From assembly GCA_016432425.1 (NCBI GenBank), contig CP066688.1, positions 20,368 through 84,367 of the forward strand: a stretch of 64,000 nucleotides of DNA, in the 5' to 3' direction. The translations under genes and the position numbers were made by a program. The notes below the pieces were generated by a model. The model saw only the letters and a program-made list of their open reading frames with translations. It was not told where the DNA came from and ran no database searches. This DNA is from Candidatus Daviesbacteria bacterium. GTDB lineage: Bacteria > Patescibacteriota > Microgenomatia > Daviesbacterales > UBA10151. Below, in pieces: positions 16,469 through 40,642 of this stretch. Numbering within the stretch: position 1 is the first letter of the stretch; every line of letters starts with the position of its first letter.

Positions 16469-17560
16469 TTATGTTTTAGTATCCCGGGAAATATTCAGCA
16501 ATATCCCTACTGCTGTTAAATTTGCCACCAGAGCTGAGCCGCCATAAGAAATAAACGGTAAAGGTACTCCGGTTAAAGGAACCAAGGCTACCATCGATGA
16601 TAAATTAATCACTGTTTGGATTCCCAACCAAACTATCAGCCCTGTAGCTAAAATTTTACCAAAGCGATCTTCGCAGTGGCGGGCAATTTCAAAACCGCGC
16701 AAAATTAACCCCAGAAAAAGCCCAATTAGAACCAAACTTCCCAGAAAACCTAACTCTTCTCCCACAATGGCAAAAATAGAATCAGTAGTTACCTCCGGAA
16801 TAAAGCCAAATTTTTGGCGCGACTGGCCCAAACCTACTCCTGTCAAACCCCCGGAACCAAGCGCAATTAGTACTTGAGAAATATGGTAAGTAAACCCCTG
16901 GGTATCGGAAAAAGGATTTAAAAAAGCGAGTACTCTCTGGAAACGATAACTGGAAGTAAAAATTAAACCCACCACCGCTAAAAGACCGGCTGGTAAAAGC
17001 AGCAAAAAATGCCACCATCTCCCGCCAGAGACAAAATAAATCATTACTGCGGTAGTGGCAAAAACGATGGTTGAACCTAAATCCTTTTGCAAAACTGCGG
17101 TAATGAAAGTAATTAGGGTAAGTAAAATTAAAAATGGTTTGAGCCTGACCCCTTTTTCAAAAATAGTGGCTAAATAAATTACACTGGTTAATTTAATAAT
17201 TTCAGCCGGTTGGATGACAGCAAATTTTAAATTTAACCAGCGATGTGCTCCCCCGCCAGAGACTCCCAGTCCGGGAATAAACACCGCCACCAGCAATATT
17301 AGGGAAAAAAGTAACATTAAAAAAGATAACCTTTTAAAATTATGGTAATTAAAAAAAGTAAAAAATCCAGCTGAGAGAAGGCCAATTATGACCCAAATAA
17401 TTTGTTGGCGAATATAGTAGTAGCTGTCATTAAAATCTTTAACAGCCTCTACCACGGAAGAGTCATAAACCATTACTAAACCAAATAAACTCAAAACTGC
17501 CGTAAAAAATAGCAGTGTATAATCAATTGAGGATGTTTGTTCCTTAAGTTTGATATTCAT
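16469..17560 (-). CDS. ftsW: SEDS-family lipid II flippase/polymerase FtsW
   Basis: It is SEDS-family with about 10 TM segments. The start is reassigned to ATG at 17560 (MNIKLK...), which abuts the mraY stop. The ORF-track start at 17647 would overlap mraY by 90 nt. Confidence 0.8.
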   Translation of the reverse strand: MNIKLKEQTSSIDYTLLFFTAVLSLFGLVMVYDSSVVEAVKDFNDSYYYIRQQIIWVIIGLLSAGFFTFFNYHNFKRLSFLMLLFSLILLVAVFIPGLGVSGGGAHRWLNLKFAVIQPAEIIKLTSVIYLATIFEKGVRLKPFLILLTLITFITAVLQKDLGSTIVFATTAVMIYFVSGGRWWHFLLLLPAGLLAVVGLIFTSSYRFQRVLAFLNPFSDTQGFTYHISQVLIALGSGGLTGVGLGQSRQKFGFIPEVTTDSIFAIVGEELGFLGSLVLIGLFLGLILRGFEIARHCEDRFGKILATGLIVWLGIQTVINLSSMVALVPLTGVPLPFISYGGSALVANLTAVGILLNISRDTKT

Positions 17561-18570
17561 CGGGAAATTAGGGCTAACCAGAGTCCGAAAATAGCAAACA
17601 ATGCTCCTACCAGCCAAAAACGGAAGACAATTTTGGGCTCTTCCCAACCTAAGTATTTAAAATACATATGTATGGGTGCAACCGGTAAAACTTTGTGGTC
17701 AAAAAATTTCTTAGAAACAATTTGAATTAAAGAGGAAGAAATAATTACCACATATACTCCTCCAATAATTGTTAAAGCTAAAATTTTACCGGTTAAAAGT
17801 CCCACTACTGCCAAGGTTGCTCCAAAAGCAAAAGCCCCGGCATCGCCTAGATAAATTCGGGCTGGATAAACATTAAAATACAAAAAGGCAAATAAAGTGC
17901 CCAACCAAATACCGATAAAACTAGCCAAAGTTAGATTCAGGGTGGCGGAAGCTAAAGCCAAAAAAGCGATTAAACAAATTAGCAGCAGGCCAGTTGAGAG
18001 TCCGTCCAAACCATCAGCAATATTATAAGCATTGGAAAAAGAAACAATAATAAAAGCAGCCAGCGGCACATACCAATAGCCAATTACCAAATTACCAATT
18101 CCCGAGATATAAATATTACTCAAACCCACCACTGAATAAAGCATTAAAGCAATTAGGACGGCAAAAATAATCTGGAACAAAAAAATAAATCGTCCCTGAA
18201 TCCCGGCATATTTACCACTAAAAGCAGTCACGATCTTTTTTAGATCATCAAGCAAACCAATTAAACCAAAAGAGAGTAGGGTATAAATTAAAATATGTAA
18301 ATCACTCTGTCCGGTAGAGTTGTTCCACTGACTAAAAAGTAAAGTTAAAATAATAATCACCGCTACCAGCAATATCCCCCCACCCACCGGCGTACCCACA
18401 TCCTTACCTTTGAGAAGCTGGTTATGGATGGGAGTTTTAGTGTCATCATATCCCTTGGGGATTTTCCTTTTATATCGGCGGCGCAGGAAAAATAAGAAAT
18501 CAATAAAAGGCACCATAAAAATACTAGTGATAAAAAAAGACAGTAGTACTAAACCAAGTAAATTAGTCAT
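17557..18570 (-). CDS. mraY: phospho-N-acetylmuramoyl-pentapeptide transferase MraY
   Basis: The polytopic protein carries the MraY/WecA-family motifs NAYNIADGLDGLSTG and LGDAGAFAFGATLAV. Confidence 0.9.
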   Translation of the reverse strand: MTNLLGLVLLSFFITSIFMVPFIDFLFFLRRRYKRKIPKGYDDTKTPIHNQLLKGKDVGTPVGGGILLVAVIIILTLLFSQWNNSTGQSDLHILIYTLLSFGLIGLLDDLKKIVTAFSGKYAGIQGRFIFLFQIIFAVLIALMLYSVVGLSNIYISGIGNLVIGYWYVPLAAFIIVSFSNAYNIADGLDGLSTGLLLICLIAFLALASATLNLTLASFIGIWLGTLFAFLYFNVYPARIYLGDAGAFAFGATLAVVGLLTGKILALTIIGGVYVVIISSSLIQIVSKKFFDHKVLPVAPIHMYFKYLGWEEPKIVFRFWLVGALFAIFGLWLALISR

Positions 18571-19763
18571 TTTTTAGCCACTCGAGCAACTACCTCATCT
18601 AGGCGGACTGAGCGCGAGCCTTTAATTAAGCAAACATCACCTTTACCTAAATATTTTAAGAGTTTGGCAACAATTTGGGAATTTTGTAAATTACTCTCTA
18701 TACTTTGCTCCCAAAATCCTAAACTTTTTAGCTCTTCAGCGATAATTTGGGCGCTACCTCCCCCCAGCAACACCAAATCTGGTTTTTCCCGATAAATTTT
18801 GCGGGCTATCTCACGATGTAAGTCATCAGAATATTTACCTAGTTCCTTCATCTCGCCCAAAACTATAATTTTTCGGCGGGCGGGAATTTTCATTAAAGTA
18901 TCAATGGCTGCACAAGCAGCAGCGGGAGATGAATTATAGGTATCATCTAAAATAACTGAGTTATTCGGCCCCATTATTGGTTGTAGACGATGATCAGCTG
19001 GAGTCATTGACTCGAGGGCATTTTTGATTTTTATTAAAGGAACTCCATTACTAATTCCCAAAGCTGCGGCCGCTAAGGCCGGATAAACCTGATGTTCCCC
19101 CAACAGCTGATATTCAACTCTCACCCGTTCGACTCCATAATTTAGCTCAAAAATAGTTTTAAAATCTTCAATTTTAATATTCCCGGCCCAAACCTCACAA
19201 TTTTTACTATCAGTTCCAAAATAAATTACCTCAGCTTCAGTCGCTTCTTTTAACTTACGGGTATAAATATCATCATAATTTAAAATCGCCAGGCCATCTT
19301 GGGGCAGTTGGGCGACTAATTTACCTTTTTCCGCCATAATCTGCTCTACTCCACCCAAGAATTCGCTGTGAGCAAAATAGATTCTGGTGACGATGGCTGT
19401 TTTAGGCTTTACCAAGGATAAATAAAAATCCATTTCCCCCGGGTATTCTATGCCCATTTCTAAAATAACCTTTTTGATCTTGGGGGTAATTTTTAAAATA
19501 GTCAGGGGTATATTTAAAATCGGGTCTAAACTAACCTGAGAAGAAAGGGTGGGAAACTTTTTTGATAACACTGCTTGACATGCCAAAACGCAAGTAGTTT
19601 TACCGACTGAACCGGTCACGCCCACAAAAAGCTGCCGGGAAAAAAGTTTGGCATATTGACGAGCCAAAAAAATTCTAATCAGATGAAAAGGTTTTTTAAA
19701 AACAGAAATCCTGGTTTGATAAGGTGTTACCTGAGTCCAAATAGGATGTGAGCTAATGTCCAT
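18567..19763 (-). CDS. murF: Mur ligase, probably UDP-MurNAc-tripeptide:D-Ala-D-Ala ligase MurF (short N-terminus)
   Basis: The P-loop VGVTGSVGKTT and Mur ligase middle and C-terminal domains are present, and it sits in the dcw position between murE and mraY. At 398 aa, the N-terminal domain is shorter than in E. coli MurF. Confidence 0.7.
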   Translation of the reverse strand: MDISSHPIWTQVTPYQTRISVFKKPFHLIRIFLARQYAKLFSRQLFVGVTGSVGKTTCVLACQAVLSKKFPTLSSQVSLDPILNIPLTILKITPKIKKVILEMGIEYPGEMDFYLSLVKPKTAIVTRIYFAHSEFLGGVEQIMAEKGKLVAQLPQDGLAILNYDDIYTRKLKEATEAEVIYFGTDSKNCEVWAGNIKIEDFKTIFELNYGVERVRVEYQLLGEHQVYPALAAAALGISNGVPLIKIKNALESMTPADHRLQPIMGPNNSVILDDTYNSSPAAACAAIDTLMKIPARRKIIVLGEMKELGKYSDDLHREIARKIYREKPDLVLLGGGSAQIIAEELKSLGFWEQSIESNLQNSQIVAKLLKYLGKGDVCLIKGSRSVRLDEVVARVAKK

Positions 19764-19822: not shown

Positions 19823-20410
19823 TTAATCGCTCGCCGCTTTAATCTTAAAAGTAGCTGACAAAATTACTTCCCTACCCAGTTTTAAGTTTTTGGGAGAAAT
19901 ATTTTCTATTTTGGAAGAAGGTGTGAGAATTCTGACTTTTTCTGCTGCTTGCTGCAGCAAGGCATTAATAAACAAATTTCCTCCAATTGATCCGGGTAAA
20001 CCAACAAAACTTTCACTTTTCAACCCCTGCTTAATTAAAAATTCCACAAAATTTCCGATGGTAACCCCAGAATCTGCTTCTACCAGAGCCTCTTCTACCC
20101 CAATGCCGAATTTAGAAACTTTACCTTTAATGGAGACTACTTTCATATCCTGGGAGCGATTTTTAATCACCAAACCTTCAAAACCTCTATCCGCAATTGC
20201 CATTTTGCTCCCCGTGCCGAAAAGTAAAAAGGGGATTTTTAATTGGCGGCAGTAGTCAATGACTTTAATAATTTCTCGCTGATTTGTAGCTACGAAAAAA
20301 AGTTTGGCCGGACCACCCAGTTTTAAGACAGTGTGATCAGATAATAGCTCATCTGTTTTGAATAAATTTTGTCCCAAGGAGCTGACAATTAATTTTAATT
20401 TAGTGTCCAT
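19823..20410 (-). CDS. MurB-like FAD-binding domain protein (C-terminal substrate domain absent)
   Basis: LKLGGPAKLFFVATNQREI...IPFLLFGTGSKMAIADRGFEGLVIKN...GLPGSIGGNLFINA matches the MurB N-terminal FAD-binding domain. The frame stops after 195 aa, and only 59 nt separate it from murF. Confidence 0.5.
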   Translation of the reverse strand: MDTKLKLIVSSLGQNLFKTDELLSDHTVLKLGGPAKLFFVATNQREIIKVIDYCRQLKIPFLLFGTGSKMAIADRGFEGLVIKNRSQDMKVVSIKGKVSKFGIGVEEALVEADSGVTIGNFVEFLIKQGLKSESFVGLPGSIGGNLFINALLQQAAEKVRILTPSSKIENISPKNLKLGREVILSATFKIKAASD

Positions 20411-21617
20411 TTAAATACTTTTTAGCTACCTTTACATCTGACCAGGGAATTTCTGTTTTTCCGTCATAATTCATTGAAGTTTCATGTCCTTTACCAAAAA
20501 CTCCCACTGTATCATCCCTGCGAGCTAATTTCCTAATAGCAAATTCAATAGCTTTTTCCCGGTCACCCACCACAAAATAATCTTTATTCTCCTTAAACTG
20601 GTGATTAACACCGGCAACAATTTGTTGATTAATACTATCCAGTAATCCCCGAGGGTCTTCGGCAGTAATTACAGTAAGATCGGCTAAACTAGTCGAAATT
20701 CTTCCCATTAAGGGCCGTTTTTTTTCGTCACGCAACCCGGCACAGCCAAAAACAGAGATTAATCTACCTTTAGTTTCTTTCCTTAAAGTCTTCAAAGCTT
20801 GTTCTAAGGCGTTAGGTGTATGGGCAAAATCTACAATAACTTTAATACCTCGAGAATTTTTCAATACCTGCATACGACCACTCAAGTTAGAGAAATTTTC
20901 TAATGTTTGCTTAATTATTTTGTGATCTATCCCTAACTCAGAAGCTACTGCCGCAGCTGCTAAACCGTTAAGCAAATTATATTCCCCCAACATTTTTATT
21001 TTTAAAGGTAATTTAATAGGATTAAAATCAGCAGTTTTCGAAAAACCAAAGCTGATTATGTTAGACATCGAATGTGTTAAGTGAACCAACCTCTCAAAGT
21101 GTTTTTCGTCACGATTTAAAACAGCTACCTTAATATCTTTTATGAGTTTGGCTTTAGTCTGAAAATAATTTTCCCAAGTTTGGTGGTAATCTAAATGGTC
21201 ATGAGTAATGTTGGTGATAACTCCTATGTTAAATTTAATACCCCAAAATCGGAATTGATCCAAGGCATGAGAGGTTACTTCCAAAATTAAATATTCGTCT
21301 CCATGATCCAAAGCTTGTTTGGCAAATCTTTGGACCATAAAAGGGTCAGGGGAAGTCACATGGAAACCGGTATCTACCACCTTACCGGCAATTTCTGCAT
21401 TAACAGTGGAAACCATGGAAACTTTTTTGTTAGCCTCTTTAAGAATTTGATAAACCATATTGGTAGTGGTGGTTTTACCATCAGTACCGGTTATACCAAT
21501 CACAGTTAGTTTCCTGCTGGGAAATCCATAATAAATATTAGCCAAAATAGCTTTGGGTAAATGGAAAAAGATATTAATAATTTTTTGGGATAGCAAAGAT
21601 TTGATAAATTTTTTCAC
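20400..21617 (-). CDS. murE: Mur ligase, probably UDP-MurNAc-L-Ala-D-Glu:diamino-acid ligase MurE (short N-terminus)
   Basis: The P-loop GITGTDGKTTTT and a C-terminal ITAEDPRG resembling the MurE DNPR motif are present. It is in the dcw position after ftsI. At 405 aa the N-terminal domain is reduced. Confidence 0.7.
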   Translation of the reverse strand: MKKFIKSLLSQKIINIFFHLPKAILANIYYGFPSRKLTVIGITGTDGKTTTTNMVYQILKEANKKVSMVSTVNAEIAGKVVDTGFHVTSPDPFMVQRFAKQALDHGDEYLILEVTSHALDQFRFWGIKFNIGVITNITHDHLDYHQTWENYFQTKAKLIKDIKVAVLNRDEKHFERLVHLTHSMSNIISFGFSKTADFNPIKLPLKIKMLGEYNLLNGLAAAAVASELGIDHKIIKQTLENFSNLSGRMQVLKNSRGIKVIVDFAHTPNALEQALKTLRKETKGRLISVFGCAGLRDEKKRPLMGRISTSLADLTVITAEDPRGLLDSINQQIVAGVNHQFKENKDYFVVGDREKAIEFAIRKLARRDDTVGVFGKGHETSMNYDGKTEIPWSDVKVAKKYLNGH

Positions 21618-21741
21618 TGAAGCTAATTATAGCAAAAGAAGTCTTAAAAATTAACTTTGAGAGGACATCTGCTTTTCAATAAATCTTATTCTTACTCTTT
21701 CCAAAATATCAGTATTGACGATATTTAATTGATAATATTTT

Positions 21742-21772
21742 TTTCAAAGTATATACGGCCGTAAAGAGTTTG
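21742..21772. repeat. left copy of an imperfect 31-bp direct repeat with ACGGCCGT palindrome core
   Basis: TTTCAAAGTATATACGGCCGTAAAGAGTTTG matches the right copy at 22282-22312 at 23 of 31 positions, and at 16 of 18 in the core ACGGCCGTARAKAGTTTG. Confidence 0.6.
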
Positions 21773-21779
21773 AAATAGA

Positions 21780-22280
21780 TTAATCTACATTATCAGTTTC
21801 AATCACCTTAACCCAGTCTTTAATTCCTATACTTTTGATGAACTCTCTTAACGGTTTTGTACAATCCTTTTTTGTTACCCAAACACTTTGCTGCCAAGGA
21901 AGAAACTCCCAACTTTTGAGTTTTTGTCTCAAGAGATCCCTTACTACTCGTCTTTTTTCGGGAATGTCAAAAATAACTATTCTCCATTTACCATCCCACT
22001 TATCTTCATTTATTAATAATTTTGTCAGTACCGCTTTCTCCTTCCCTTTATCCGTCAACTTTATTACTAACGTTTCATCATCAACAAAATCAATTAGACC
22101 ATTTTCTCGAAGTCTTCTAATCGCATTAGACAAAGCTGATTTATTTAATGGATAGTCCCAACCACTTCCCCAGGCATAATATTTTGGTTTGTGGATTAAA
22201 TCATCAAACCTCACATATCCATCAACTGTTTTTTCTAAAATTAGGAGAATTAATTTAGATAAACTTTTCTTTTTATACAT
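21780..22280 (-). CDS. PaaX-like winged-helix regulator (PaaX C-terminal domain pattern)
   Basis: DGKWRIVIFDIPEKRRVVRDLLRQKLKSWEFLPWQQSVWV matches the PaaX_C signature (W..V.F.IPE..R..R..LR..L...GF..L..SVWV). It has a 160-aa winged-helix N-terminus. It interrupts the dcw order between ftsI and murE. Confidence 0.55.
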   Translation of the reverse strand: MYKKKSLSKLILLILEKTVDGYVRFDDLIHKPKYYAWGSGWDYPLNKSALSNAIRRLRENGLIDFVDDETLVIKLTDKGKEKAVLTKLLINEDKWDGKWRIVIFDIPEKRRVVRDLLRQKLKSWEFLPWQQSVWVTKKDCTKPLREFIKSIGIKDWVKVIETDNVD

Positions 22281-22281
22281 G

Positions 22282-22312
22282 TTTCAAGATTATCACGGCC
22301 GTAGATAGTTTG
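22282..22312. repeat. right copy of an imperfect 31-bp direct repeat with ACGGCCGT palindrome core
   Basis: TTTCAAGATTATCACGGCCGTAGATAGTTTG. See the left copy at 21742-21772. A third related copy lies at 33111-33131. Confidence 0.6.
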
Positions 22313-22410
22313 TCGATTGAAAAAAACATTAGAAAATACAACAACCGCACAAGTGGAACATGATAGTGCCTTTGATGAAATTACAAGAGAAGTTATCTAT
22401 AAATAGGTCT

Positions 22411-24108
22411 TTATTCTTCTGGTGCAATTTTGTAGTAGGTAAAAAGATCTTGAGTAATCTTAAAAAAGGTGGGGGCGGCTGTTTCTGCTCCAAAGATTGA
22501 GGCTGAAGGTTGATCAAAACGCACCAGCATGACAAATTTAGGATGGTCAGCCGGAGCAAATCCGATAAAAGAAGCAATTGTTTTAGTGGGGTCATAATGG
22601 CCGGCCACCGGAATCTGAGCCGTACCAGTTTTTCCGGCAATTTTGAAACCTTTAGGTTTGGCAAATTTGGCCTCTCCCTCATCCACCGCTTTGACCATCA
22701 TTTCTTTCACAACTTGAGCGGCATTTTCTGATATGACATTTCTGATTACCCTAGGTTTGATTTCAAAAGTCGAGTTACCATCAACAATTGATTTGACTAC
22801 CTGTGGCTCCATCAAATTCCCCCCATTGGCAATGGCCGAAACTGCTGTGACCATTTGAATAGGAGTTATGGCAATACCCTGGCCAAAAGAGGTAGTTGCC
22901 AGATCAATCTCCCGCCAATTCTTTTTAGGACGAAGTGTGGGTGCAGTTTCATCTTGCAGATCAATATCAGTGGAACCGTCAAAGCCAAATTTTTGTAAAT
23001 AGGCATAAAATTTATCAAGCCCCAGTTTCCGGCTGGTAAATACCATTCCCGTATTATCTGAGTGGATGATTACATCTGTCATGGTTAAGCCGGGACGATA
23101 CTTGTTATCCCAAGTTCGAATCGAGTAATCATTCACTTGTACCGGCCCGCTACAGATATCACATTTAGTATCGCTTTTAACTACATCTTCATTAATAGCA
23201 GCTGACATCACCAGTACTTTAAAAGTAGAACCAGGTTCATATTGGTCAGCTACCACAGCATTTTTATAGTAGTCTTTAGGAAAATTACTAAATCTCAGTG
23301 GATCATAGTTAGGGTAAGCAGCTAGGGCTAAAATTGCTCCGGTATAAGGCTCCATTACCACCGCCGAGGCAGCCTTGGCCCCATACCGCTCCATAGATTC
23401 CTGTAAATATTTTTCCACCGTGTATTGAACTACCCGGTCCAAATTTAAGTTCAAATTTTTGCCATCTTTGGGAGAGTTACCTAAAAATCTGCCGATTAAA
23501 ATCGGCAGGCCAAAAACATCTTTTTCGCTAATTGCCGCCCCAGGAACCCCTCTCAACTCTCCATCATAAAATCCTTCTATTCCAAAATAACCGGTTGGCT
23601 CTCCGCGAGCGTCAGAGCCGACAAATCCCAAAAGCTTAGCAGAGGAAGATCCTTCCGGATAAAATCTGGTGCTGGTATTTTGGAAACCTATTCCTGGTAA
23701 ATTACTTTGCTCTACTTTTTTTTTAAGTGTTAAATCAATATTTTTTTTTAACTGTACCCAATATAAATCTTGAGATAAACTCTCTGAAAAACTCTGTTTT
23801 AAAGATATTTCCTCGGTTTCATCATTTGCTAAAATTTTTGCAAGTTTTGTAGAAACTTGCTTTTTTTGCTCTTCTGATAATGTTTTCGGCAAACCATAGA
23901 GATTAAAGACAAGTTGGGAGCTAGCTAAAATGCTTCCGTCAGAAAAATAAATCTGACCCCGAGTGGCAGGTTGTAGCTGCTCTTGCAGATGTTGCCGGTC
24001 AGCAGTGGCCGCCAAAAAATCGCCGCGCAACATTTGCCAATAAAATAATCTAGAGATAATTAAGGCAATGAAGATTAGGAAAAAAATCCGTAAAATTTTT
24101 AGCCTCAT
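22411..24108 (-). CDS. ftsI: class B penicillin-binding protein / FtsI transpeptidase
   Basis: An N-terminal TM anchor is followed by the active-site triad STFK, SDN (HSDNTG) and KTGT. Confidence 0.85.
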   Translation of the reverse strand: MRLKILRIFFLIFIALIISRLFYWQMLRGDFLAATADRQHLQEQLQPATRGQIYFSDGSILASSQLVFNLYGLPKTLSEEQKKQVSTKLAKILANDETEEISLKQSFSESLSQDLYWVQLKKNIDLTLKKKVEQSNLPGIGFQNTSTRFYPEGSSSAKLLGFVGSDARGEPTGYFGIEGFYDGELRGVPGAAISEKDVFGLPILIGRFLGNSPKDGKNLNLNLDRVVQYTVEKYLQESMERYGAKAASAVVMEPYTGAILALAAYPNYDPLRFSNFPKDYYKNAVVADQYEPGSTFKVLVMSAAINEDVVKSDTKCDICSGPVQVNDYSIRTWDNKYRPGLTMTDVIIHSDNTGMVFTSRKLGLDKFYAYLQKFGFDGSTDIDLQDETAPTLRPKKNWREIDLATTSFGQGIAITPIQMVTAVSAIANGGNLMEPQVVKSIVDGNSTFEIKPRVIRNVISENAAQVVKEMMVKAVDEGEAKFAKPKGFKIAGKTGTAQIPVAGHYDPTKTIASFIGFAPADHPKFVMLVRFDQPSASIFGAETAAPTFFKITQDLFTYYKIAPEE

Positions 24109-24129: not shown

Positions 24130-24399
24130 TCATTCAGATAAATATTGTACGGCTTTTGCTTTGGAAAAGCCAAGGTTGGCAGCAGCTGAGGCGATATAAC
24201 TCAGGGAAGAAATACTGGCCAAATTGTTTTCCAGGCGCAAATTCTCCCAGTTAATTTCTTGTTGCAGTTTATTAATTTGTACTAATTTTTCTCCCAAACT
24301 AGCGGTAGTATTATTGGCCCAAATTTTTAAAATGGCCAAAATTAAAAGTAGGGCCAAACCGGCTACCAAGTATTTACGCCAATCCTTAATCTGGTTCAT
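24130..24399 (-). CDS. ftsL: FtsL-like small bitopic division protein
   Basis: It is 89 aa with a single TM helix and a coiled-coil, placed between rsmH and ftsI. The call rests on context. Confidence 0.5.
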   Translation of the reverse strand: MNQIKDWRKYLVAGLALLLILAILKIWANNTTASLGEKLVQINKLQQEINWENLRLENNLASISSLSYIASAAANLGFSKAKAVQYLSE

Positions 24400-25280
24400 G
24401 AAACTAATTTTTGAAAAACTCTAAGTTTGGCTGACCTGGCTCGGGGATTTTGATTAATTTCTCTCTCGCTGGGAAGTAAAGGTTTTTTAAAACTACTCTC
24501 ACCCAGCCCCATATTTTGCCAGTGGCGAAAAATGTTTTTCACCGCTCTATCCTCTAATGAGTGAAAACTAATCACTAAGACTAATCCGTCTTTTTCTACC
24601 ACTTTTAAACTTGCTTCCAAACCTTCTTTTAGAGCATTTAGTTCATCATTAACAGCTATCCTCAAGGCCTGGAAAATTTTGGTGGCGGGGTGAATTTTGC
24701 CACTTCTACCCACCTCTTTTTCAATTACCCGGGCTAAATCACCAGTTGTCTTAATTACTGGACGGGCGCTGACCACAGCAGCAGCCAGCTTGCGAGCAAA
24801 TTTTTCTTCACCCAATTTAGTAAATAATTCATTAAGTTCTCCTTTGTTTAAACCACGGATCAGATCCAAAGCAGTTACCGAAAGCTTTGGGTCCATCCTC
24901 ATATCCAGAGGGCCTTCTCTTAAAAAAGAAAAACCCCGCTCCGGAGTTTCTAGTTGTAGACTGGAAACCCCTAGATCAAAAATTACACCAAGAAATTTTT
25001 GATCGATTCCCGTCTGTGCTATTAAATTAGTTAAATCGCGAAAATTACCTTCAATTAATTGATACTGCTTCGCTGGAATTCCCTCTTGCTCAAACCTTTG
25101 GCTAGCTCTCTCTAGGGCTTGGGGGTCAACATCTATCCCCACTAGTTTACTTCCCTGCTTCAAAATTTCTAAACTATGTCCACCATCCCCCAAAGTACAA
25201 TCTAAATACCAGGCACCTTTTTGAATATGTAAGGCTACTAAAGTTTCCTTAAGAAGAACGGACTTATGATAAGTTTTCAT
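24396..25280 (-). CDS. rsmH: 16S rRNA (cytosine1402-N4)-methyltransferase RsmH (MraW)
   Basis: HKSVLLKETL...YLDCTLGDGGHS is the RsmH SAM-binding N-terminus, and the gene is in the canonical position after mraZ. Confidence 0.9.
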   Translation of the reverse strand: MKTYHKSVLLKETLVALHIQKGAWYLDCTLGDGGHSLEILKQGSKLVGIDVDPQALERASQRFEQEGIPAKQYQLIEGNFRDLTNLIAQTGIDQKFLGVIFDLGVSSLQLETPERGFSFLREGPLDMRMDPKLSVTALDLIRGLNKGELNELFTKLGEEKFARKLAAAVVSARPVIKTTGDLARVIEKEVGRSGKIHPATKIFQALRIAVNDELNALKEGLEASLKVVEKDGLVLVISFHSLEDRAVKNIFRHWQNMGLGESSFKKPLLPSEREINQNPRARSAKLRVFQKLVS

Positions 25281-25656
25281 ACTCTTCCTTCAGTTTAGCT
25301 AATTTTTCCTGCCAACGCGACTTGTCCCAAATCTCAAAATGATCACCCACTCCGATAATAACTATTTCCGAACCTAATTTTGCTAACTCTAAGAGAGTGG
25401 CAGGAATAACCAATCTTCCCTGATGATCCAACTCTGCGGAGTAGCTAGCAGAAAAAATTAATCGGCGCTCATCTAAAATCCGCTCTTCTAATTTAAAAGT
25501 GCTTTCCCAATCTTGCCGTGAATAACCTTCAATTACCTCTTCTTCTATCCTTAAAACTAGTTTTTTACCATTGATCTCTTCCCGTAGGCTTTTGGGCAGA
25601 ACCACCCTGCCAACACCAACAAATTTCATTTCAAACTGGCCTAAAAACATACTCAT
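25264..25656 (-). CDS. mraZ: transcriptional regulator MraZ
   Basis: The duplicated MraZ/SpoVT-AbrB domain is present (FLGQFEMKFVGVGRVVLPKSLRE... and ...RLVIPATLLELAKL), as the first gene of the dcw cluster. Confidence 0.9.
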   Translation of the reverse strand: MSMFLGQFEMKFVGVGRVVLPKSLREEINGKKLVLRIEEEVIEGYSRQDWESTFKLEERILDERRLIFSASYSAELDHQGRLVIPATLLELAKLGSEIVIIGVGDHFEIWDKSRWQEKLAKLKEEYENLS

Positions 25657-28283: not shown

Positions 28284-28934
28284 TCACCTCTGTTTTAAAA
28301 ACTGGCGGGATTTTAACTGCCCTTCCAGGGTTCTTTCAATATAGTAACGTAAATATCTTTCTAATTCTAGAGCTTGAATCTCGGTTATCTGCATTTTTTC
28401 AATCTGATCCCAGTCAAAATTTTGTAAATCCTCTAGTATTTTCCTGATTTGTATTGACACCCCGGGGGTGGAAGTAGGGTTTGAAGGGAAAAAAGTGGCG
28501 AAGCCTAAGACTGATAGTATTTTAACCTCAAAAGCCCTGATTAAAATTTGCCGAGGATTTCGAGAAAGTTTCTCCAGTACTCTAACTAAATATTCATATA
28601 AAATTTGATTTTCTTGGCCTTCAGCGGTAATTTTATCTACTAGTTCAATCAAATGATAAGCATAAGTGGAAAGCGTTAAATCTGCTTTTAATTTGGGATA
28701 AGTGTCCAAACTCTCCGCTTCAGTCAAAATAGGCATTCCCTTACCTTGATGGAAATACATAATCGCCCGATTTAGTAGTTCTACGTTGCCGGCCCGGCGA
28801 GAGGTAATCCGGCGCACCCCTTTAGCTAAAACAGAAATTTTACCTTTTTTTTGTGAAAAAACTGTCAAAATCCGATCCGCCTCTCCAAAATTACGTCTTT
28901 TTAAAATAATTCCCTCTGTTTTAAAAGAAAACAT
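28284..28934 (-). CDS. recO: DNA repair protein RecO
   Basis: The N-terminal OB fold EGIILKRRNFGEADRILTVFSQKKGKISVLAKGVRR matches RecO. The 216-aa length is typical. Confidence 0.8.
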   Translation of the reverse strand: MFSFKTEGIILKRRNFGEADRILTVFSQKKGKISVLAKGVRRITSRRAGNVELLNRAIMYFHQGKGMPILTEAESLDTYPKLKADLTLSTYAYHLIELVDKITAEGQENQILYEYLVRVLEKLSRNPRQILIRAFEVKILSVLGFATFFPSNPTSTPGVSIQIRKILEDLQNFDWDQIEKMQITEIQALELERYLRYYIERTLEGQLKSRQFLKQR

Positions 28935-31511: not shown

Positions 31512-32564
31512 CTACCGGGGCAACTGTTTGCTAAAATTAAGTTTAAAATTTTCCAGGGAAAAACGCCGGGCATTTTTCTGACAATCTTGAGGATTAATCT
31601 GGATATTTTCTAATCTTTTGATAGCCTTTATTAAACTTTCTACTGACTGCTGCGGAAAAAATACTCCGGTTTTACCGCCAATTACCGTTTCCAGCGCCCC
31701 ACCACTTTGATAAGCGATAACTGGTTTACCTAAAGCCTGAGCTTCCAGCGGTGTTAGACCAAAATCTTCTTCTCCTGCTAAAATCAAAGCCCGACAGCCA
31801 GCTAAAAGTCGTACTACCAATTCATCGCTCACCTGACCCAAAAACTCTACCCTGCTGTTACCATCCACCATCTTTCTTAAGTTACTCATCTGCGGACCGT
31901 TGCCTACAATTTTTAAAGGAATTTTTAATTTCTGACAAGCTGTAATTGCCAAATCCACTCTTTTGTATTGGTTTAATCTGGCAATTACTAAAAAATAGCC
32001 TCCATTAAAAATCTCTATGCCTTCAAATCTTTTCAAATCAATATAAGGGTATAAAACTTGAGAGTCCTTATTATAAACCTGTTTAATTCTCTCTTTGGCA
32101 TTTTTTGAACCGGCTAAAAAATAATCCACCCTGGCAGAGGAAACATGATCAAAATATCTTAACCAGTTTAAAAAAGGTATTTTAAATTGACCATTAAAAT
32201 TATATAAAAATCTGGGGGGACTGTGACAATAGCAAATGTGCACGGTTTCTGGCTTAGTAATAATTGCCTTAGCAAAACGGGTAGTATGAGAAATGACTAA
32301 ATCAAAATCAGAGAAATCGAACTGTTCAAAAGCAATTGGATAAAGGGGCAGTAATGCTTTGTAGAGAAATTTCCAACCGGGAATTTTTTGTAAAAAAGAA
32401 GTAATAATTTTTTTGTTAGCAAACCTTTCTTTTAACTGATTATTCGAATAATCGAAAACTGAAGTAAAAATTGGCGCATTGGGATAAATTTGTGTCAATC
32501 CTTCCAAAACTCGCTCCGCTCCACCCCACTGCACCAGGTCATCATGAACAATTGCTACGCGCAT
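31512..32564 (-). CDS. GT4 family glycosyltransferase
   Basis: A GT-B fold with the C-terminal EX7E region EEDFGLTPLEAQALGKPVIA. Confidence 0.75.
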   Translation of the reverse strand: MRVAIVHDDLVQWGGAERVLEGLTQIYPNAPIFTSVFDYSNNQLKERFANKKIITSFLQKIPGWKFLYKALLPLYPIAFEQFDFSDFDLVISHTTRFAKAIITKPETVHICYCHSPPRFLYNFNGQFKIPFLNWLRYFDHVSSARVDYFLAGSKNAKERIKQVYNKDSQVLYPYIDLKRFEGIEIFNGGYFLVIARLNQYKRVDLAITACQKLKIPLKIVGNGPQMSNLRKMVDGNSRVEFLGQVSDELVVRLLAGCRALILAGEEDFGLTPLEAQALGKPVIAYQSGGALETVIGGKTGVFFPQQSVESLIKAIKRLENIQINPQDCQKNARRFSLENFKLNFSKQLPR

Positions 32565-33649
32565 TTTTGATATACCTCCAAAGTTTGTTTAGCTAATTTT
32601 TTCCAGGAAAAATCTTTGACTCTTTGCTGGCCTTTTTTAATTAATTCCTGTCTTAAATTTTCATCATTTAAAACCTGTTGAATTTTTTCCATCATTTCCT
32701 CTAAATTATGGGGGTCAAAATATAAAGCAGCTTCTCCCCCTACCTCCAAAAGTGAACCAGCATTAGAAGAAACTGCCGGACAGGAAGAAGCAAATGCCTC
32801 CAACAAAGGTAAGCCAAAACCTTCCTCATACGAGGGCATGATAAAACACTCTGCATTTTTATATAAAGTTACCAGCTCGCCGTCACTCACAAATCCGGTA
32901 AAAATAATATCGGGATCCTGATATTTCTTTTTTAATTTTTCCCAAAAGAAATGATCATGTCCTGATAAAACTAATTGTAAGGATGGATCATTTTGTCTCA
33001 ATTTTAAAAATACTTCAATTAATCCTTCCACATTTTTATGGGGATGAACATTACCTATATAAAAAATATACGGCGGTTTGATACTAAATTTTTCCCTATT
33101 CAAACTACCTACGGCCGTGATAAGTTTGTCGTCAACTGCTTCCGGAGTAACTATGATTTTTTTATCATCCACCTTCCATTCGTTAATTAATTGATTTTTT
33201 ACAAAATTAGAAGGCGTCAAAATTTGCCGGGATTTTACTACAGCATTTGAAAAAACTTTTTTATAGCCTATTTTTTTTAAATGATAAGTTACAGGGTCTA
33301 AAGTAGTCGCCCTGTTCATAGGATAGTGCTGATGAATCAAGTCATGAATAGTAACCACAAATTTGCCCGTATAAAAAATCGGCACATTAAAATGGGGGAA
33401 ATGAACCAGATCGGGATTTATTTTTTTTAAGATTCCAGGAAGTTTAAATTGTTCTTGCAAAGTATACCATCTAAAATTTACTTCAACTTTTTGGAAATTT
33501 TGAGTTAATTTAAATCTTAAATCCTTTTGCAACAACAAAATAAAATATTCATTAGTTTGATCTAAGGTCTGTAATTCCTGCAACAGATTCCGCAAATACC
33601 TACCAATTCCTGATTCATTTATTAATCTGGCATCAATGGCGATTCTCAT
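32555..33649 (-). CDS. GT4 family glycosyltransferase
   Basis: The EX7E region reads EGFGLPLLEAFASSCPAVSS. It contains an ACGGCCGT-motif copy at 33111-33131. Confidence 0.75.
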   Translation of the reverse strand: MRIAIDARLINESGIGRYLRNLLQELQTLDQTNEYFILLLQKDLRFKLTQNFQKVEVNFRWYTLQEQFKLPGILKKINPDLVHFPHFNVPIFYTGKFVVTIHDLIHQHYPMNRATTLDPVTYHLKKIGYKKVFSNAVVKSRQILTPSNFVKNQLINEWKVDDKKIIVTPEAVDDKLITAVGSLNREKFSIKPPYIFYIGNVHPHKNVEGLIEVFLKLRQNDPSLQLVLSGHDHFFWEKLKKKYQDPDIIFTGFVSDGELVTLYKNAECFIMPSYEEGFGLPLLEAFASSCPAVSSNAGSLLEVGGEAALYFDPHNLEEMMEKIQQVLNDENLRQELIKKGQQRVKDFSWKKLAKQTLEVYQKCA

Positions 33650-39413: not shown

Positions 39414-39986
39414 TTAAATTATTTCTTTCTGCAGCGATTTTCGCCAAATTTTAAAAACCGAGATTGATAGTCCCCATATTGCCAAATAAACAAAAATTCG
39501 CCAAATAATATTATTAGGGTAAAAACGCAAAGTAGTTTTAGAATCATAATATACCCCGTTAATATGGACATGATCTCCCACAAAATTGTGGGGTGCCTTC
39601 AACAACTCGTTGTGTACAAAAGGCTCATACCCTCCCACAAAAATCGAACCGCGCAGGGGATAAACATATTCTTCCATGAAGGTAACATAAATTTGATCAC
39701 GGACCATTCTTTTAGCTTCCTCCGGAGGGTAATTTAAAGTTAGTGGTGGAAAGAATTTGCCAAAGATAAATGAATCTTGATAATCTTGCCGATAAAACTC
39801 TGTTATCTCAGCTCTTTTAGAAAAAGAAAAGAAAGCCGCAATATTGGGAACTTGCACCGTGTCGCCCGGTTCATCTGATTTTGCAGACTGAGGCAAGGGA
39901 GAAAAATCTTCCACAGAAGTAGGACCAGGTAAAATAATATACAATAAACCAAGTATAAAAATAAAAGGCAAAATTTTTTTTCTCAT
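39414..39986 (-). CDS. hypothetical bitopic membrane protein
   Basis: It has N-terminal and C-terminal hydrophobic helices and no motif. It sits inside the glycan locus. Confidence 0.45.
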
Positions 39987-40624
39987 TGAAAGAGCCGCGC
40001 CCGCCCTAGCAGGTAGTGAAGATTTTTATTTTTCCGTTCACCAATTTTGACAGCTGGCACGCCTCCCACAATTTCATATGGTTTCACATCTTTAGTAACT
40101 ACTGCTCCCGCAGCCACAGTCGCCCCTTCACCAATTTTGACCCCCGGCAAAATAATCACCCTGGGGCCAATAAAAACATAATCACTAATTTTTACCGCAG
40201 CAACAGTCGCCCGAAAATCTTCAGAGTTAATATCATGTTCGCTGTTATAAATTAACACCTGTGAAGCAATATCTACATGATTGCCAATAATTAGTTTATC
40301 CCGGCCATCTAAAAAAGCATCAGCTCCCACAATAGAATCCTCCCCAATTTCTATATTAGGCGGATAAAAAAATTGCGTACCCATGTGCAGGTGAGATCCT
40401 GCTCCAATTTTGACTCCGGCTAAAACATAAAAAAGATAGCGAATAGAATAAAGAGGTATCAACCCTACAATCCGTAAAATTAACAGTTCTGCATCCAGAA
40501 AATAATTAAAAATACGGTTAATTATTTTTCTGATAGCCTCAGTGGTAGACAAAGTTCGCCCGGACTTATCTTTAAAAACCAAACCATCCCGTAGATTTAT
40601 GGCTAAATTATCGGAAAACAGCAT
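39983..40624 (-). CDS. hexapeptide-repeat (LbH) sugar O-acetyltransferase with N-terminal membrane segment
   Basis: Left-handed beta-helix repeats ([10 protein letters not shown]...[11 protein letters not shown]...[11 protein letters not shown]...[29 protein letters not shown]) are present, as in WcaF/WbbJ-type acetyltransferases. Confidence 0.75.
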
Positions 40625-40642
40625 AATTTGAGTATAACAAAT

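Follow-up and report, generated by a model that had tools for sequence, protein, structure and literature searches.

In the lac (O1/O2), gal (OE/OI) and deo systems, a promoter operator is combined with an auxiliary operator, and the two act together through DNA looping. PaaX represses its own synthesis, binding to an inverted repeat and blocking RNA polymerase at Px (PMC9493321). Here, we describe a small PaaX-like regulator gene, together with the two imperfect repeats that flank it, in the division and cell wall (dcw) cluster of a Candidatus Daviesbacteria bacterium. The gene lies in a stretch of 64,000 nucleotides (contig CP066688.1, positions 20,368 to 84,367), hereafter the window, whose own numbering is used throughout. 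A preliminary description of the locus had read the repeats either as the footprint of an insertion event or as paired operator sites for the regulator itself. Sequence comparison favors the second possibility, and we consider it fairly likely that the gene encodes an autorepressor with one operator in its promoter and an auxiliary operator at the end of the gene.

The regulator gene and its flanking palindromes

The regulator coding sequence (21780-22280 including the stop, minus strand; ORF list, translation and Pfam PaaX_M) encodes a winged helix, a linker helix and a PaaX_M domain. As the preliminary description had it, this 166-aa open reading frame (ORF) lies between ftsI and murE, with all three genes on the minus strand (ORF list and Pfam). 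The flanking 31-bp repeats are also real: the stretches at 21742-21772 (TTTCAAAGTATATACGGCCGTAAAGAGTTTG) and 22282-22312 (TTTCAAGATTATCACGGCCGTAGATAGTTTG) are identical at 23/31 positions, and the 18-nt stretches that begin at the shared ACGGCCGT are identical at 16/18. A repeat search returned the two copies as the top direct-repeat family (38 nt, 71%, spacing 540). The term "direct repeats" holds only in part, since the copies are indeed repeated, with a third at 33098-33128, but each is itself an imperfect 28-34 bp palindrome of the form CAAACT-N4-ACGGCCGT-N4-AGTTTG, or more fully TTTCAAACT-N4-ACGGCCGT-N4-AGTTTGAAA. The distinction between direct and inverted is therefore largely undefined, and the copy at 21742-21772 fits the degenerate pattern on the minus strand too, with one mismatch.

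The promoter-embedded copy, O1 (22285-22312; CAAACTATCTACGGCCGTGATAATCTTG on the gene strand), ends 4 nt before the ATG, and the gene-end copy, O2 (21745-21772; CAAACTCTTTACGGCCGTATATACTTTG on the gene strand), starts 7 nt after the stop codon (TAA), its palindrome extending to 21742-21775. The centers of O1 and O2 are 540 bp apart. O2 is the more symmetric of the two, with 11/14 symmetric pairs compared with 8/14 for O1. The three conserved blocks of the operator, the two arms and the core, are spaced ~11 bp apart and thus fall on one helix face.

Chance occurrence of these sites was assessed against the AT-rich sequence of the window. The ACGGCCGT core occurs three times where 0.21 occurrences are expected, a count reached in 0/100 shuffles, and 0.00 matches to the degenerate 31-nt pattern are expected. 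A weight matrix built from the sites of other genomes only retrieved exactly three window positions at 34-41 bits, namely O1 (36.8 bits), O2 (34.1 bits) and the third copy. No other window position reaches 8 bits, and the best shuffle score was 19.7.

O1 coincides with a predicted sigma-70-type promoter of the regulator (22289-22316, minus strand), which consists of TCGACA (22316-22311), a 16-nt spacer and GATAAT (22294-22289) and matches the consensus at 10/12 positions. In the gene-strand upstream region, TCGACAAACTATCTACGGCCGTGATAATcttgaaacATG, the ACGGCCGT core of O1 sits in the predicted spacer, and the O1 arms overlap the -35 and -10 hexamers. With its end 8 nt before the ATG, the predicted -10 box gives a leaderless-type arrangement. 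Homologs show the same order, with TTGACA or TCGACA separated by a 16-17 nt spacer from a -10 box that precedes the start codon by 6-8 nt, and the complete layout with a CG-rich core in the spacer is present in L001, L003, L005-L008, L012, L035 and L038 (L numbers denote comparison loci).

The 166-aa protein is identical to HYW45_00225, a "hypothetical protein" of a Candidatus Daviesbacteria metagenome-assembled genome (Microgenomates, Candidate Phyla Radiation (CPR)). A PaaX_C pattern had been ascribed to it; the Pfam match is instead to PaaX_M (PF20803), the central Cas2-like domain, at residues 93-164 (E = 1.6e-21; 76.7 bits, cut-off 24). Pfam gives no match to the PaaX_C effector domain, and the protein stops at residue 166, straight after the middle domain. 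The NCBIfam PaaX equivalog (TIGR02277) aligns at model positions 35-140 of 279 only, scoring 23 bits against a cut-off of 264.55, and Pfam CRISPR_Cas2 scores 16.8 bits, under its 23.8 cut-off. With PaaX_M present and PaaX_C not found, the protein is therefore a minimal PaaX relative of two domains that has no effector domain, distinct both from PaaX itself and from CRISPR Cas2.

Because a sequence search of the PDB gave nothing significant, a fold search was needed. The AlphaFold2 model (predicted local distance difference test score 79.8) comprises a winged helix at residues ~7-75 (H-(E)-H-H-wing), a linker helix and a beta-alpha-beta-beta-alpha-beta domain at 98-163. Foldseek against the PDB ranked Escherichia coli PaaX first (8a39, E = 1.2e-5), followed by Rv0674 (3kfw, E = 3.7e-4) and a Jannaschia protein (3l09, E = 1.3e-2). 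Cas2 chains align to the C-terminal half with a root-mean-square deviation of ~3 A over 72-78 residues, and the N-terminal winged helix also aligns to many MarR and PadR winged helix-turn-helix (wHTH) proteins, in addition to a weak MarR sequence match at residues 45-116 (E = 0.14).

The family is large. A word-indexed search returned 625 homologs at E <= 1e-3, mostly at 58-80% identity, and an exhaustive profile search of 50%-identity clusters returned 5,631 at E <= 1e-3 and 2,861 at E <= 1e-10, mostly of 165-195 aa. Across 30 homologs the mean column identity is 70%. The FDIPE and QxSVW motifs are invariant in this set, including the Asp of the Cas2-like FDIPE motif, as is Cys140, which is a lead only toward the signal that is sensed. 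The cassette protein is 72-77% identical among carriers, compared with 63-64% for FtsI and 57-62% for MurE between the window and those genomes, values that indicate strong purifying selection. A second paralog in the window genome, P0025 (172 aa, 68% identity), is encoded on the same 820,589-bp contig; none was found within the 64-kb window. GCA_964649615.1 likewise carries at least two paralogs, among them L003 and L035, which are ~74% identical in protein and both have the CAAACT/ACGGCCGT operator class, implying cross-binding in that genome.

Several homologs, P0025 among them, are labeled "CRISPR-associated endonuclease Cas2" by NCBI, and others "hypothetical". There is no CRISPR-like array in the 64-kb window, no cas genes were called at homolog loci, and PADLOC gave marginal matches only, to wHTH and Cas2 models (E = 0.004-0.008 for the Cas2 models). 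A CRISPR/Cas2 link was rejected on the missing arrays and sub-threshold scores, and membership in a defense system on the marginal PADLOC matches. In a functional sense the Cas2 label is a mis-annotation, and such annotations on these genes are not to be read as CRISPR components.

Conservation of the paired sites and competing explanations

The comparison set comprised 13 distinct homologous cassettes from other CPR genomes. A palindrome with a CG-rich core is found in the promoter of 13/13 cassettes, directly before the start codon except in L011 and L013, and 12/13 carry a second palindrome after the stop codon. Relatives had been proposed as a check for genes lacking flanking repeats, and nearly all of the cassettes thus carry both. 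In 11/13 cassettes the end of site 1 is 4-6 nt from the start codon, in 10/12 site 2 follows the stop codon at 0-8 nt, and centers are 528-564 bp apart. The contexts are unrelated: ftsI/murE (dcw), ftsH/DUF5667 and GT4, Fur/Zip, Wzy_C/MreB, and GT2/PMT_2. In alignments of six cassettes, conservation is confined to the interval from the -35 box to the outer limit of O2, beyond which the flanks cannot be aligned, and the two sites are the only conserved non-coding blocks around the gene. The finding of equivalent site pairs with homologous genes in such contexts does not fit an insertion scar.

The sequence class of the operator follows the protein subfamily. The CAAACT...ACGGCCGT...AGTTTG class is shared by the window, L001, L003, L035 and L038; L008 keeps the CAAACT/AGTTTG arms around a ACGATCGT core; L005 has CATTTAT...ACGACCGT; L012 and L011 have CATTAAT...ACGGTCGT or ACGATCGT; L006 and L007 share a class containing GACGGCCGTC; and the L013 site is centered on CCGATCGG. 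This tracking is expected if the encoded dimeric wHTH protein binds the sites, and it is not expected from target duplication or from an invariant host factor. Of the two readings in the preliminary description, paired operators for the regulator is thus the one with comparative support, the sites being palindromic, one of them lying in the promoter, and their class changing with the subfamily.

We infer that the protein binds these sites, that the regulation is negative and that O2 contributes through a loop or a roadblock. The protein would dimerize, most likely through its Cas2-fold domain as in PaaX, and bind the 28-bp palindrome. A dimer at O1 would exclude RNA polymerase from the regulator's own leaderless promoter, which is predicted to start transcription at or next to the ATG, resulting in negative autoregulation as for PaaX at Px. 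O2 is anchored to the stop codon of its own gene and not to the next gene: the next start codon follows O2 at anything from roughly 40 to about 240 nt, and O2 keeps its spacing from the stop when the downstream neighbor is convergent (L006, L007) or lies 1.5 kb off (L008). Because it is anchored in this way whatever follows, O2 would be an auxiliary operator of the cassette itself and not of the neighbor. It may cooperate with O1 via a ~540-bp DNA loop around the whole gene, or it may act as a protein roadblock that insulates the cassette from read-through, which here would enter it from ftsI and leave it toward murE. As roadblocks, O1 and O2 would split dcw transcription into an mraZ-ftsI unit and a unit from murE onward; a terminator scan of 21300-22700 found 0 sites, with none between ftsI and the cassette nor up to murE. 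Promoter, O1, gene and O2 would together make a self-contained cassette of ~575 bp, which looks like the standard design of the family in Microgenomates.

Several observations weigh against the autorepressor model. L011 has no O2, and in L030 and L013 O2 lies 16-49 nt after the stop codon. The 528-564 bp spacings do not amount to a constant number of helical turns, and looping would require higher-order oligomers. No ligand-binding domain is recognizable in the regulator. The sequence of the third window site, which lies in a glycosyltransferase gene, is not conserved in L035, a genome with the same operator class. Finally, in L001, L035 and L038 O2 ends 30-33 nt before a TATAAT box that is probably that of murE.

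The last of these points also speaks in favor of O2 being mainly an operator of the downstream gene, such that the regulator would control murE and hence peptidoglycan precursor synthesis. Four independent genomes (the window, L001/L009, L035 and L038) indeed keep the cassette immediately upstream of murE, and orphan sites in L012 and L027 are likewise found just upstream of a -35 box. In the window, however, the TATAAT box next to O2 has decayed, and murE is predicted to use its native promoter (21615-21634, minus strand; TGcTATAAT at 21634-21626, 8 nt, GTG at 21617-21615), whose -10 box is ~110 bp from O2. This promoter is homologous to the one that directly follows ftsI in junctions free of any site (gcgcTATAATtggcctcaATG in L037 and cagTATAATtgtctgcaATG in L034). 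The constant spacing of O2 from the stop codon where no gene follows closely, or where the next gene is convergent, also speaks against this explanation. We regard it as unlikely, with a secondary role of O2 at the murE promoter being possible in L001, L035 and L038 and less likely in the window.

Five sites (L027:805-832, L012:2728-2755, L001:5507-5534, L035:12390-12417 and L038:1526-1553) lie 15-40 nt upstream of the -35/-10 elements of a neighboring promoter, with centers near -55 to -65. From its geometry, such an upstream position could reflect activation or UP-element interference rather than simple occlusion.

An insertion that left target-site duplications is expected to be matched by a single repeat copy in empty relatives. 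At this locus, ftsI (22411-24108, minus strand; a penicillin-binding protein (PBP) transpeptidase with Pfam PBP_dimer and Transpeptidase) is the upstream neighbor, and a murE-like Mur ligase of 405 aa (20400-21617, minus strand; Mur_ligase_M/C) is the downstream one. The junction is empty in L034 (GCA_030651435; FtsI 85% identical to the window; 21 bp, TAA...TATAAT-N8-ATG), in L037 (FtsI 86%; 35 bp) and in L036 (FtsI 64%; 26 bp). L035 (= L010; FtsI 64%) has the cassette directly between ftsI and murE. In L001/L009 (FtsI 63%) the cassette is upstream of murE with two extra genes before it, and in L038, whose contig holds the ftsI 3' end only, it is upstream of murE after a 54-aa ORF. Compared with its counterparts immediately after ftsI in L034 and L037, the window murE is 75-79% identical, and it keeps the TATAAT-N8-start promoter of the empty junctions. 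The ftsI-murE spacer is thus a permissive one at which presence of the cassette is polymorphic, the two closest relatives having none. FtsI and MurE identities suggest the tree ((window, L037), L034), on which parsimony favors a single gain in the window lineage over two losses; the three distant Daviesbacteria carriers with the cassette in the same spacer also fit ancient presence followed by losses. A sliding-window comparison revealed no mosaic ftsI 3' or murE 5' ends, the window being closest to L034 and L037 along both genes. Recent insertion by homologous recombination from a carrier lineage was considered, and no recombination tract was detected.

These comparisons bear on the possibility that target-site duplication produced the repeats, or that they are terminal repeats belonging to a small cassette that the wHTH-Cas2-fold protein mobilizes. 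Clean presence and absence of the gene is what a mobile element would show, as is a conserved block that stops exactly at both palindromes. The cassette also occurs in many contexts and in at least two copies per genome (L003/L035 in GCA_964649615, P0001/P0025 in the window genome), solo sites exist, and the Cas2-like FDIPE and QxSVW motifs are invariant. The empty junctions, however, lack the single repeat copy that the insertion reading had predicted, and no motif copy is found anywhere in the 7-22 kb of L034, L037 and L036; because they hold no copy, the repeats are not target-site duplications. The extra DNA of the window relative to L034 and L037 amounts to about 750-790 bp and reaches roughly 100 nt past each palindrome, and the upstream "end" of the cassette is a functional-looking promoter. 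No transposase, recombinase or HUH domain was found in the protein (Pfam, NCBIfam, PADLOC, PHROGs), and the known copies that share a genome reach no more than ~68-74% protein identity, so that no recent transposition is visible. Viral contigs held neither protein relatives nor motif matches, phage records gave no match, and plasmids gave two remote true-PaaX matches only, both actinobacterial. A phage or plasmid origin was rejected on this basis, these three sources having revealed no link of the cassette to phages or plasmids. The insertion reading therefore holds in one respect, the gene being additional to the dcw cluster, yet the repeats are no scar of an insertion. We consider the mobile-element explanation very unlikely, and the direct repeats at this locus are no evidence of transposition.

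A variant of this idea holds that the ~575-bp unit is a minimal self-mobilizing or selfish cassette, the winged helix of its protein recognizing the palindromes and the Cas2-type core nicking or joining DNA. It would explain the presence/absence pattern, the many contexts, the diverged copies and the solo palindromes, including the one that took the place of part of the glycosyltransferase linker, and, if true, would make a Cas2-fold nuclease the basis of a new mobile-element class. Such an outcome would come as a considerable surprise.

The sites could also be bound by another host factor, for example a global regulator or a Xer-type recombinase. The 28-bp site can be read as 11-bp arms around a 6-bp center, CGGCCG, in an 11-6-11 arrangement as in pdif modules, and pdif-type modules are single genes bracketed by Xer-type sites. 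Here, the bracketed gene is always of this regulator family, with no variable cargo seen; O1 is integrated with a promoter; and the site sequence changes with the protein subfamily, which is unexpected for one invariant host factor. These features make a host factor highly improbable.

Lastly, transcript hairpins acting as a terminator, processing site or stabilizer are scarcely credible: O2 is palindromic and is transcribed at the mRNA 3' end, and the outer arms covary with complementarity kept (ttt/aaa in the window, tacc/ggta in L003), but symmetric covariation is equally expected for a dimeric protein site, the folds are weak (-1.9 to -6.1 kcal/mol; z -1.3 to +1.3 against shuffles), no T-run follows O2, the terminator scan is empty, O1 precedes the predicted transcription start, and no Rfam family was matched. 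An RNA hairpin or terminator was accordingly rejected.

Sites away from the gene and the surrounding cluster

A transcription factor is expected to have sites away from its own gene. The third site of the window (33101-33128, within the 31-nt match 33098-33128; CAAACTACCTACGGCCGTGATAAGTTTG in plus-strand reading) has the highest score in the window, 40.8 bits. It is contained in a GT4 glycosyltransferase gene (32555-33649, minus strand), in the part that encodes the linker joining the two Rossmann domains; there the window protein diverges locally from its orthologs and is 7 aa shorter. At the orthologous codon position, L035:1259-1286 is a perfect 28-bp palindrome (14/14; CATTATATTCGCGATCGCGAATATAATG) of another class, and L034:958-985 is a 10/14 palindrome that is identical to that of L035 at 22/28 positions; no palindrome was found at this position in the GT4 gene of L036. 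The window site has the operator class of the ftsI-murE cassette, and the other palindrome class of the GT4 linker is the CATTATAT class. As only 0.28 such palindromes are expected per 64 kb by chance, the intragenic palindrome is conserved in position and variable in sequence class, and the linker looks like a position-conserved intragenic operator with switched specificity. The third site had initially been taken for a young, lineage-specific accident, a view that was revised given the palindromes of another class at the same codon position in L034 and L035. The regulator probably also binds the site at 33101-33128.

A scan of metagenomes with the CAAACT-class pattern returned 20 matches. 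Eleven of these (11/20) are on GC-rich contigs (GC 0.44-0.66) and look like chance, and the nine contigs with a GC content of 0.33-0.41 include orphan sites away from any family gene, as expected for a transcription factor. The L020 site is upstream of a hexapeptide transferase gene that is orthologous to window 39986-40642, the L026 site adjoins a GT4 gene, and the L027 site is 15 nt upstream of the TTGACA-17-TATAAA promoter of a PIN-toxin operon. The orphan region of L032 holds two different perfect 28-bp palindromes, both intergenic. Judging from these matches, the regulator probably has a small regulon. Envelope glycosylation genes recur near the orphan sites; a single functional theme is not thereby proven. 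Taken together, the ftsI-murE cassette, the site in a glycosyltransferase gene and the orphan sites near envelope genes suggest a lineage-variable link of the regulator to cell-wall and polysaccharide synthesis.

Two further observations concern palindromes of this type. The pair in L032 (L032:556-583, CAAACTACCCACGGCCGTGGGTAGTTTG, and L032:634-661, CAAAACTACGACGGCCGTCGTAGTTTTG) is separated by 50 nt and lies between divergent ORFs on a short AT-rich contig; the region looks like a control region for two paralogous regulators of the family. In the window, a weak 10/14 palindrome centered on CGCCCG is present at 28753-28780 (AAATACATAATCGCCCGATTTAGTAGTT), and the counterpart regions of L034 and L035 are recO-like. 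Given the 0.28 expected per window, it is probably due to chance.

The remainder of the dcw cluster, all on the minus strand, comprises mraZ (25264-25656), rsmH (24396-25280) and an ftsL-like gene (24130-24399) on the far side of ftsI, and, beyond murE, a murB-like fragment (19823-20410), a murF-like gene (18567-19763) and mraY (17557-18570). Many window genes lack a Shine-Dalgarno sequence and have a -10-like box whose end is 6-8 nt from the start codon, as in murE (TGcTATAAT-8-GTG) and murF (TATAAT-6-ATG), which suggests widespread leaderless mRNAs and internal promoters within the cluster. The murB-like gene encodes only 195 aa, with the FAD_binding_4 domain alone. Mur_ligase_M begins at residue 42 of the murE-like ligase, and the usual N-terminal Mur ligase domain is apparently missing or very short; the murE orthologs of relatives are in an equal length range (398-405 aa). 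A murA gene (EPSP_synthase) follows the murB-like gene in L001, L035 and L036 and is not found at that place in the window or in L034. After ftsI, L001 has adh_short and an ORF, and L038 the 54-aa ORF. An IS200-like Y1_Tnp transposase gene (L035:19918-20616, minus strand) is present in the dcw cluster of GCA_964649615, where a HAD hydrolase gene and murG flank it. Insertions are tolerated at several spacers of the dcw cluster in these organisms.

Relation to known systems

An autorepressor with an auxiliary operator is classical behavior and already known. New are the existence of a large CPR family with this minimal two-domain form, the conserved placement of two operator copies on either side of the regulator's own gene, the variable presence of that gene in the dcw cluster, and a palindrome in a glycosyltransferase gene that is conserved in position and variable in class. 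In the literature searched, no description of this family or of the paired-operator design was found. Transcriptional regulation in CPR/Patescibacteria is almost unexplored, and a large, conserved family of small regulators hereby gains a concrete candidate operator.

PaaX of E. coli W (8A39) is the best structural match, with the same N-terminal winged helix and Cas2-like middle domain. PaaX represses its own promoter by way of an inverted repeat; here a palindrome overlaps the predicted promoter and is kept in homologs, and autorepression would follow the same mode. In contrast to PaaX (~305 aa), the 166-aa protein is without the C-terminal helical effector domain and hence has no phenylacetyl-CoA pocket. 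Its neighbors are ftsI, murE, murF and mraY, with no paa genes nearby; in the 13 contexts seen, no paa genes adjoin the homologs either, whose neighbors are envelope, ftsH or Fur/Zip genes. The operator also differs, being 6-N4-8-N4-6 (28 bp) instead of TGATTC-N27-GAATCA, and an extra copy is placed after the stop codon. The two-domain core also superposes on Rv0674 (3KFW) and the Jannaschia protein (3L09), which at 234-250 aa keep a C-terminal extension. With Cas2 the protein shares the ferredoxin-like fold of its C-terminal half and the FDIPE and QxSVW motifs; here, unlike in Cas2, this half is fused to a wHTH domain and scores below the family cut-off, and the window has no CRISPR-like array.

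The likeness to lac, gal and deo concerns mechanism only: a weaker, promoter-constrained operator is accompanied by a more symmetric one a few hundred bp away. In those systems a target operon is involved, whereas here the pair brackets the regulator's own gene, and looping is proposed only. Units of REP-associated tyrosine transposases and repetitive extragenic palindromes (RAYT/REP), as well as IS200-type units, resemble the cassette in having one short gene between two palindromes and solo palindromes elsewhere. They differ from it in that the regulator has no HUH/Y1 domain, its palindromes number 3 in 64 kb as opposed to tens to hundreds, and the upstream one lies within a promoter. MraZ, encoded here at the head of the same cluster, is likewise a DNA-binding regulator of dcw residence. 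Its fold is unrelated, however, its binding sites follow another logic, and it occupies the first-gene position, whereas the regulator described here is a variable addition between ftsI and murE.

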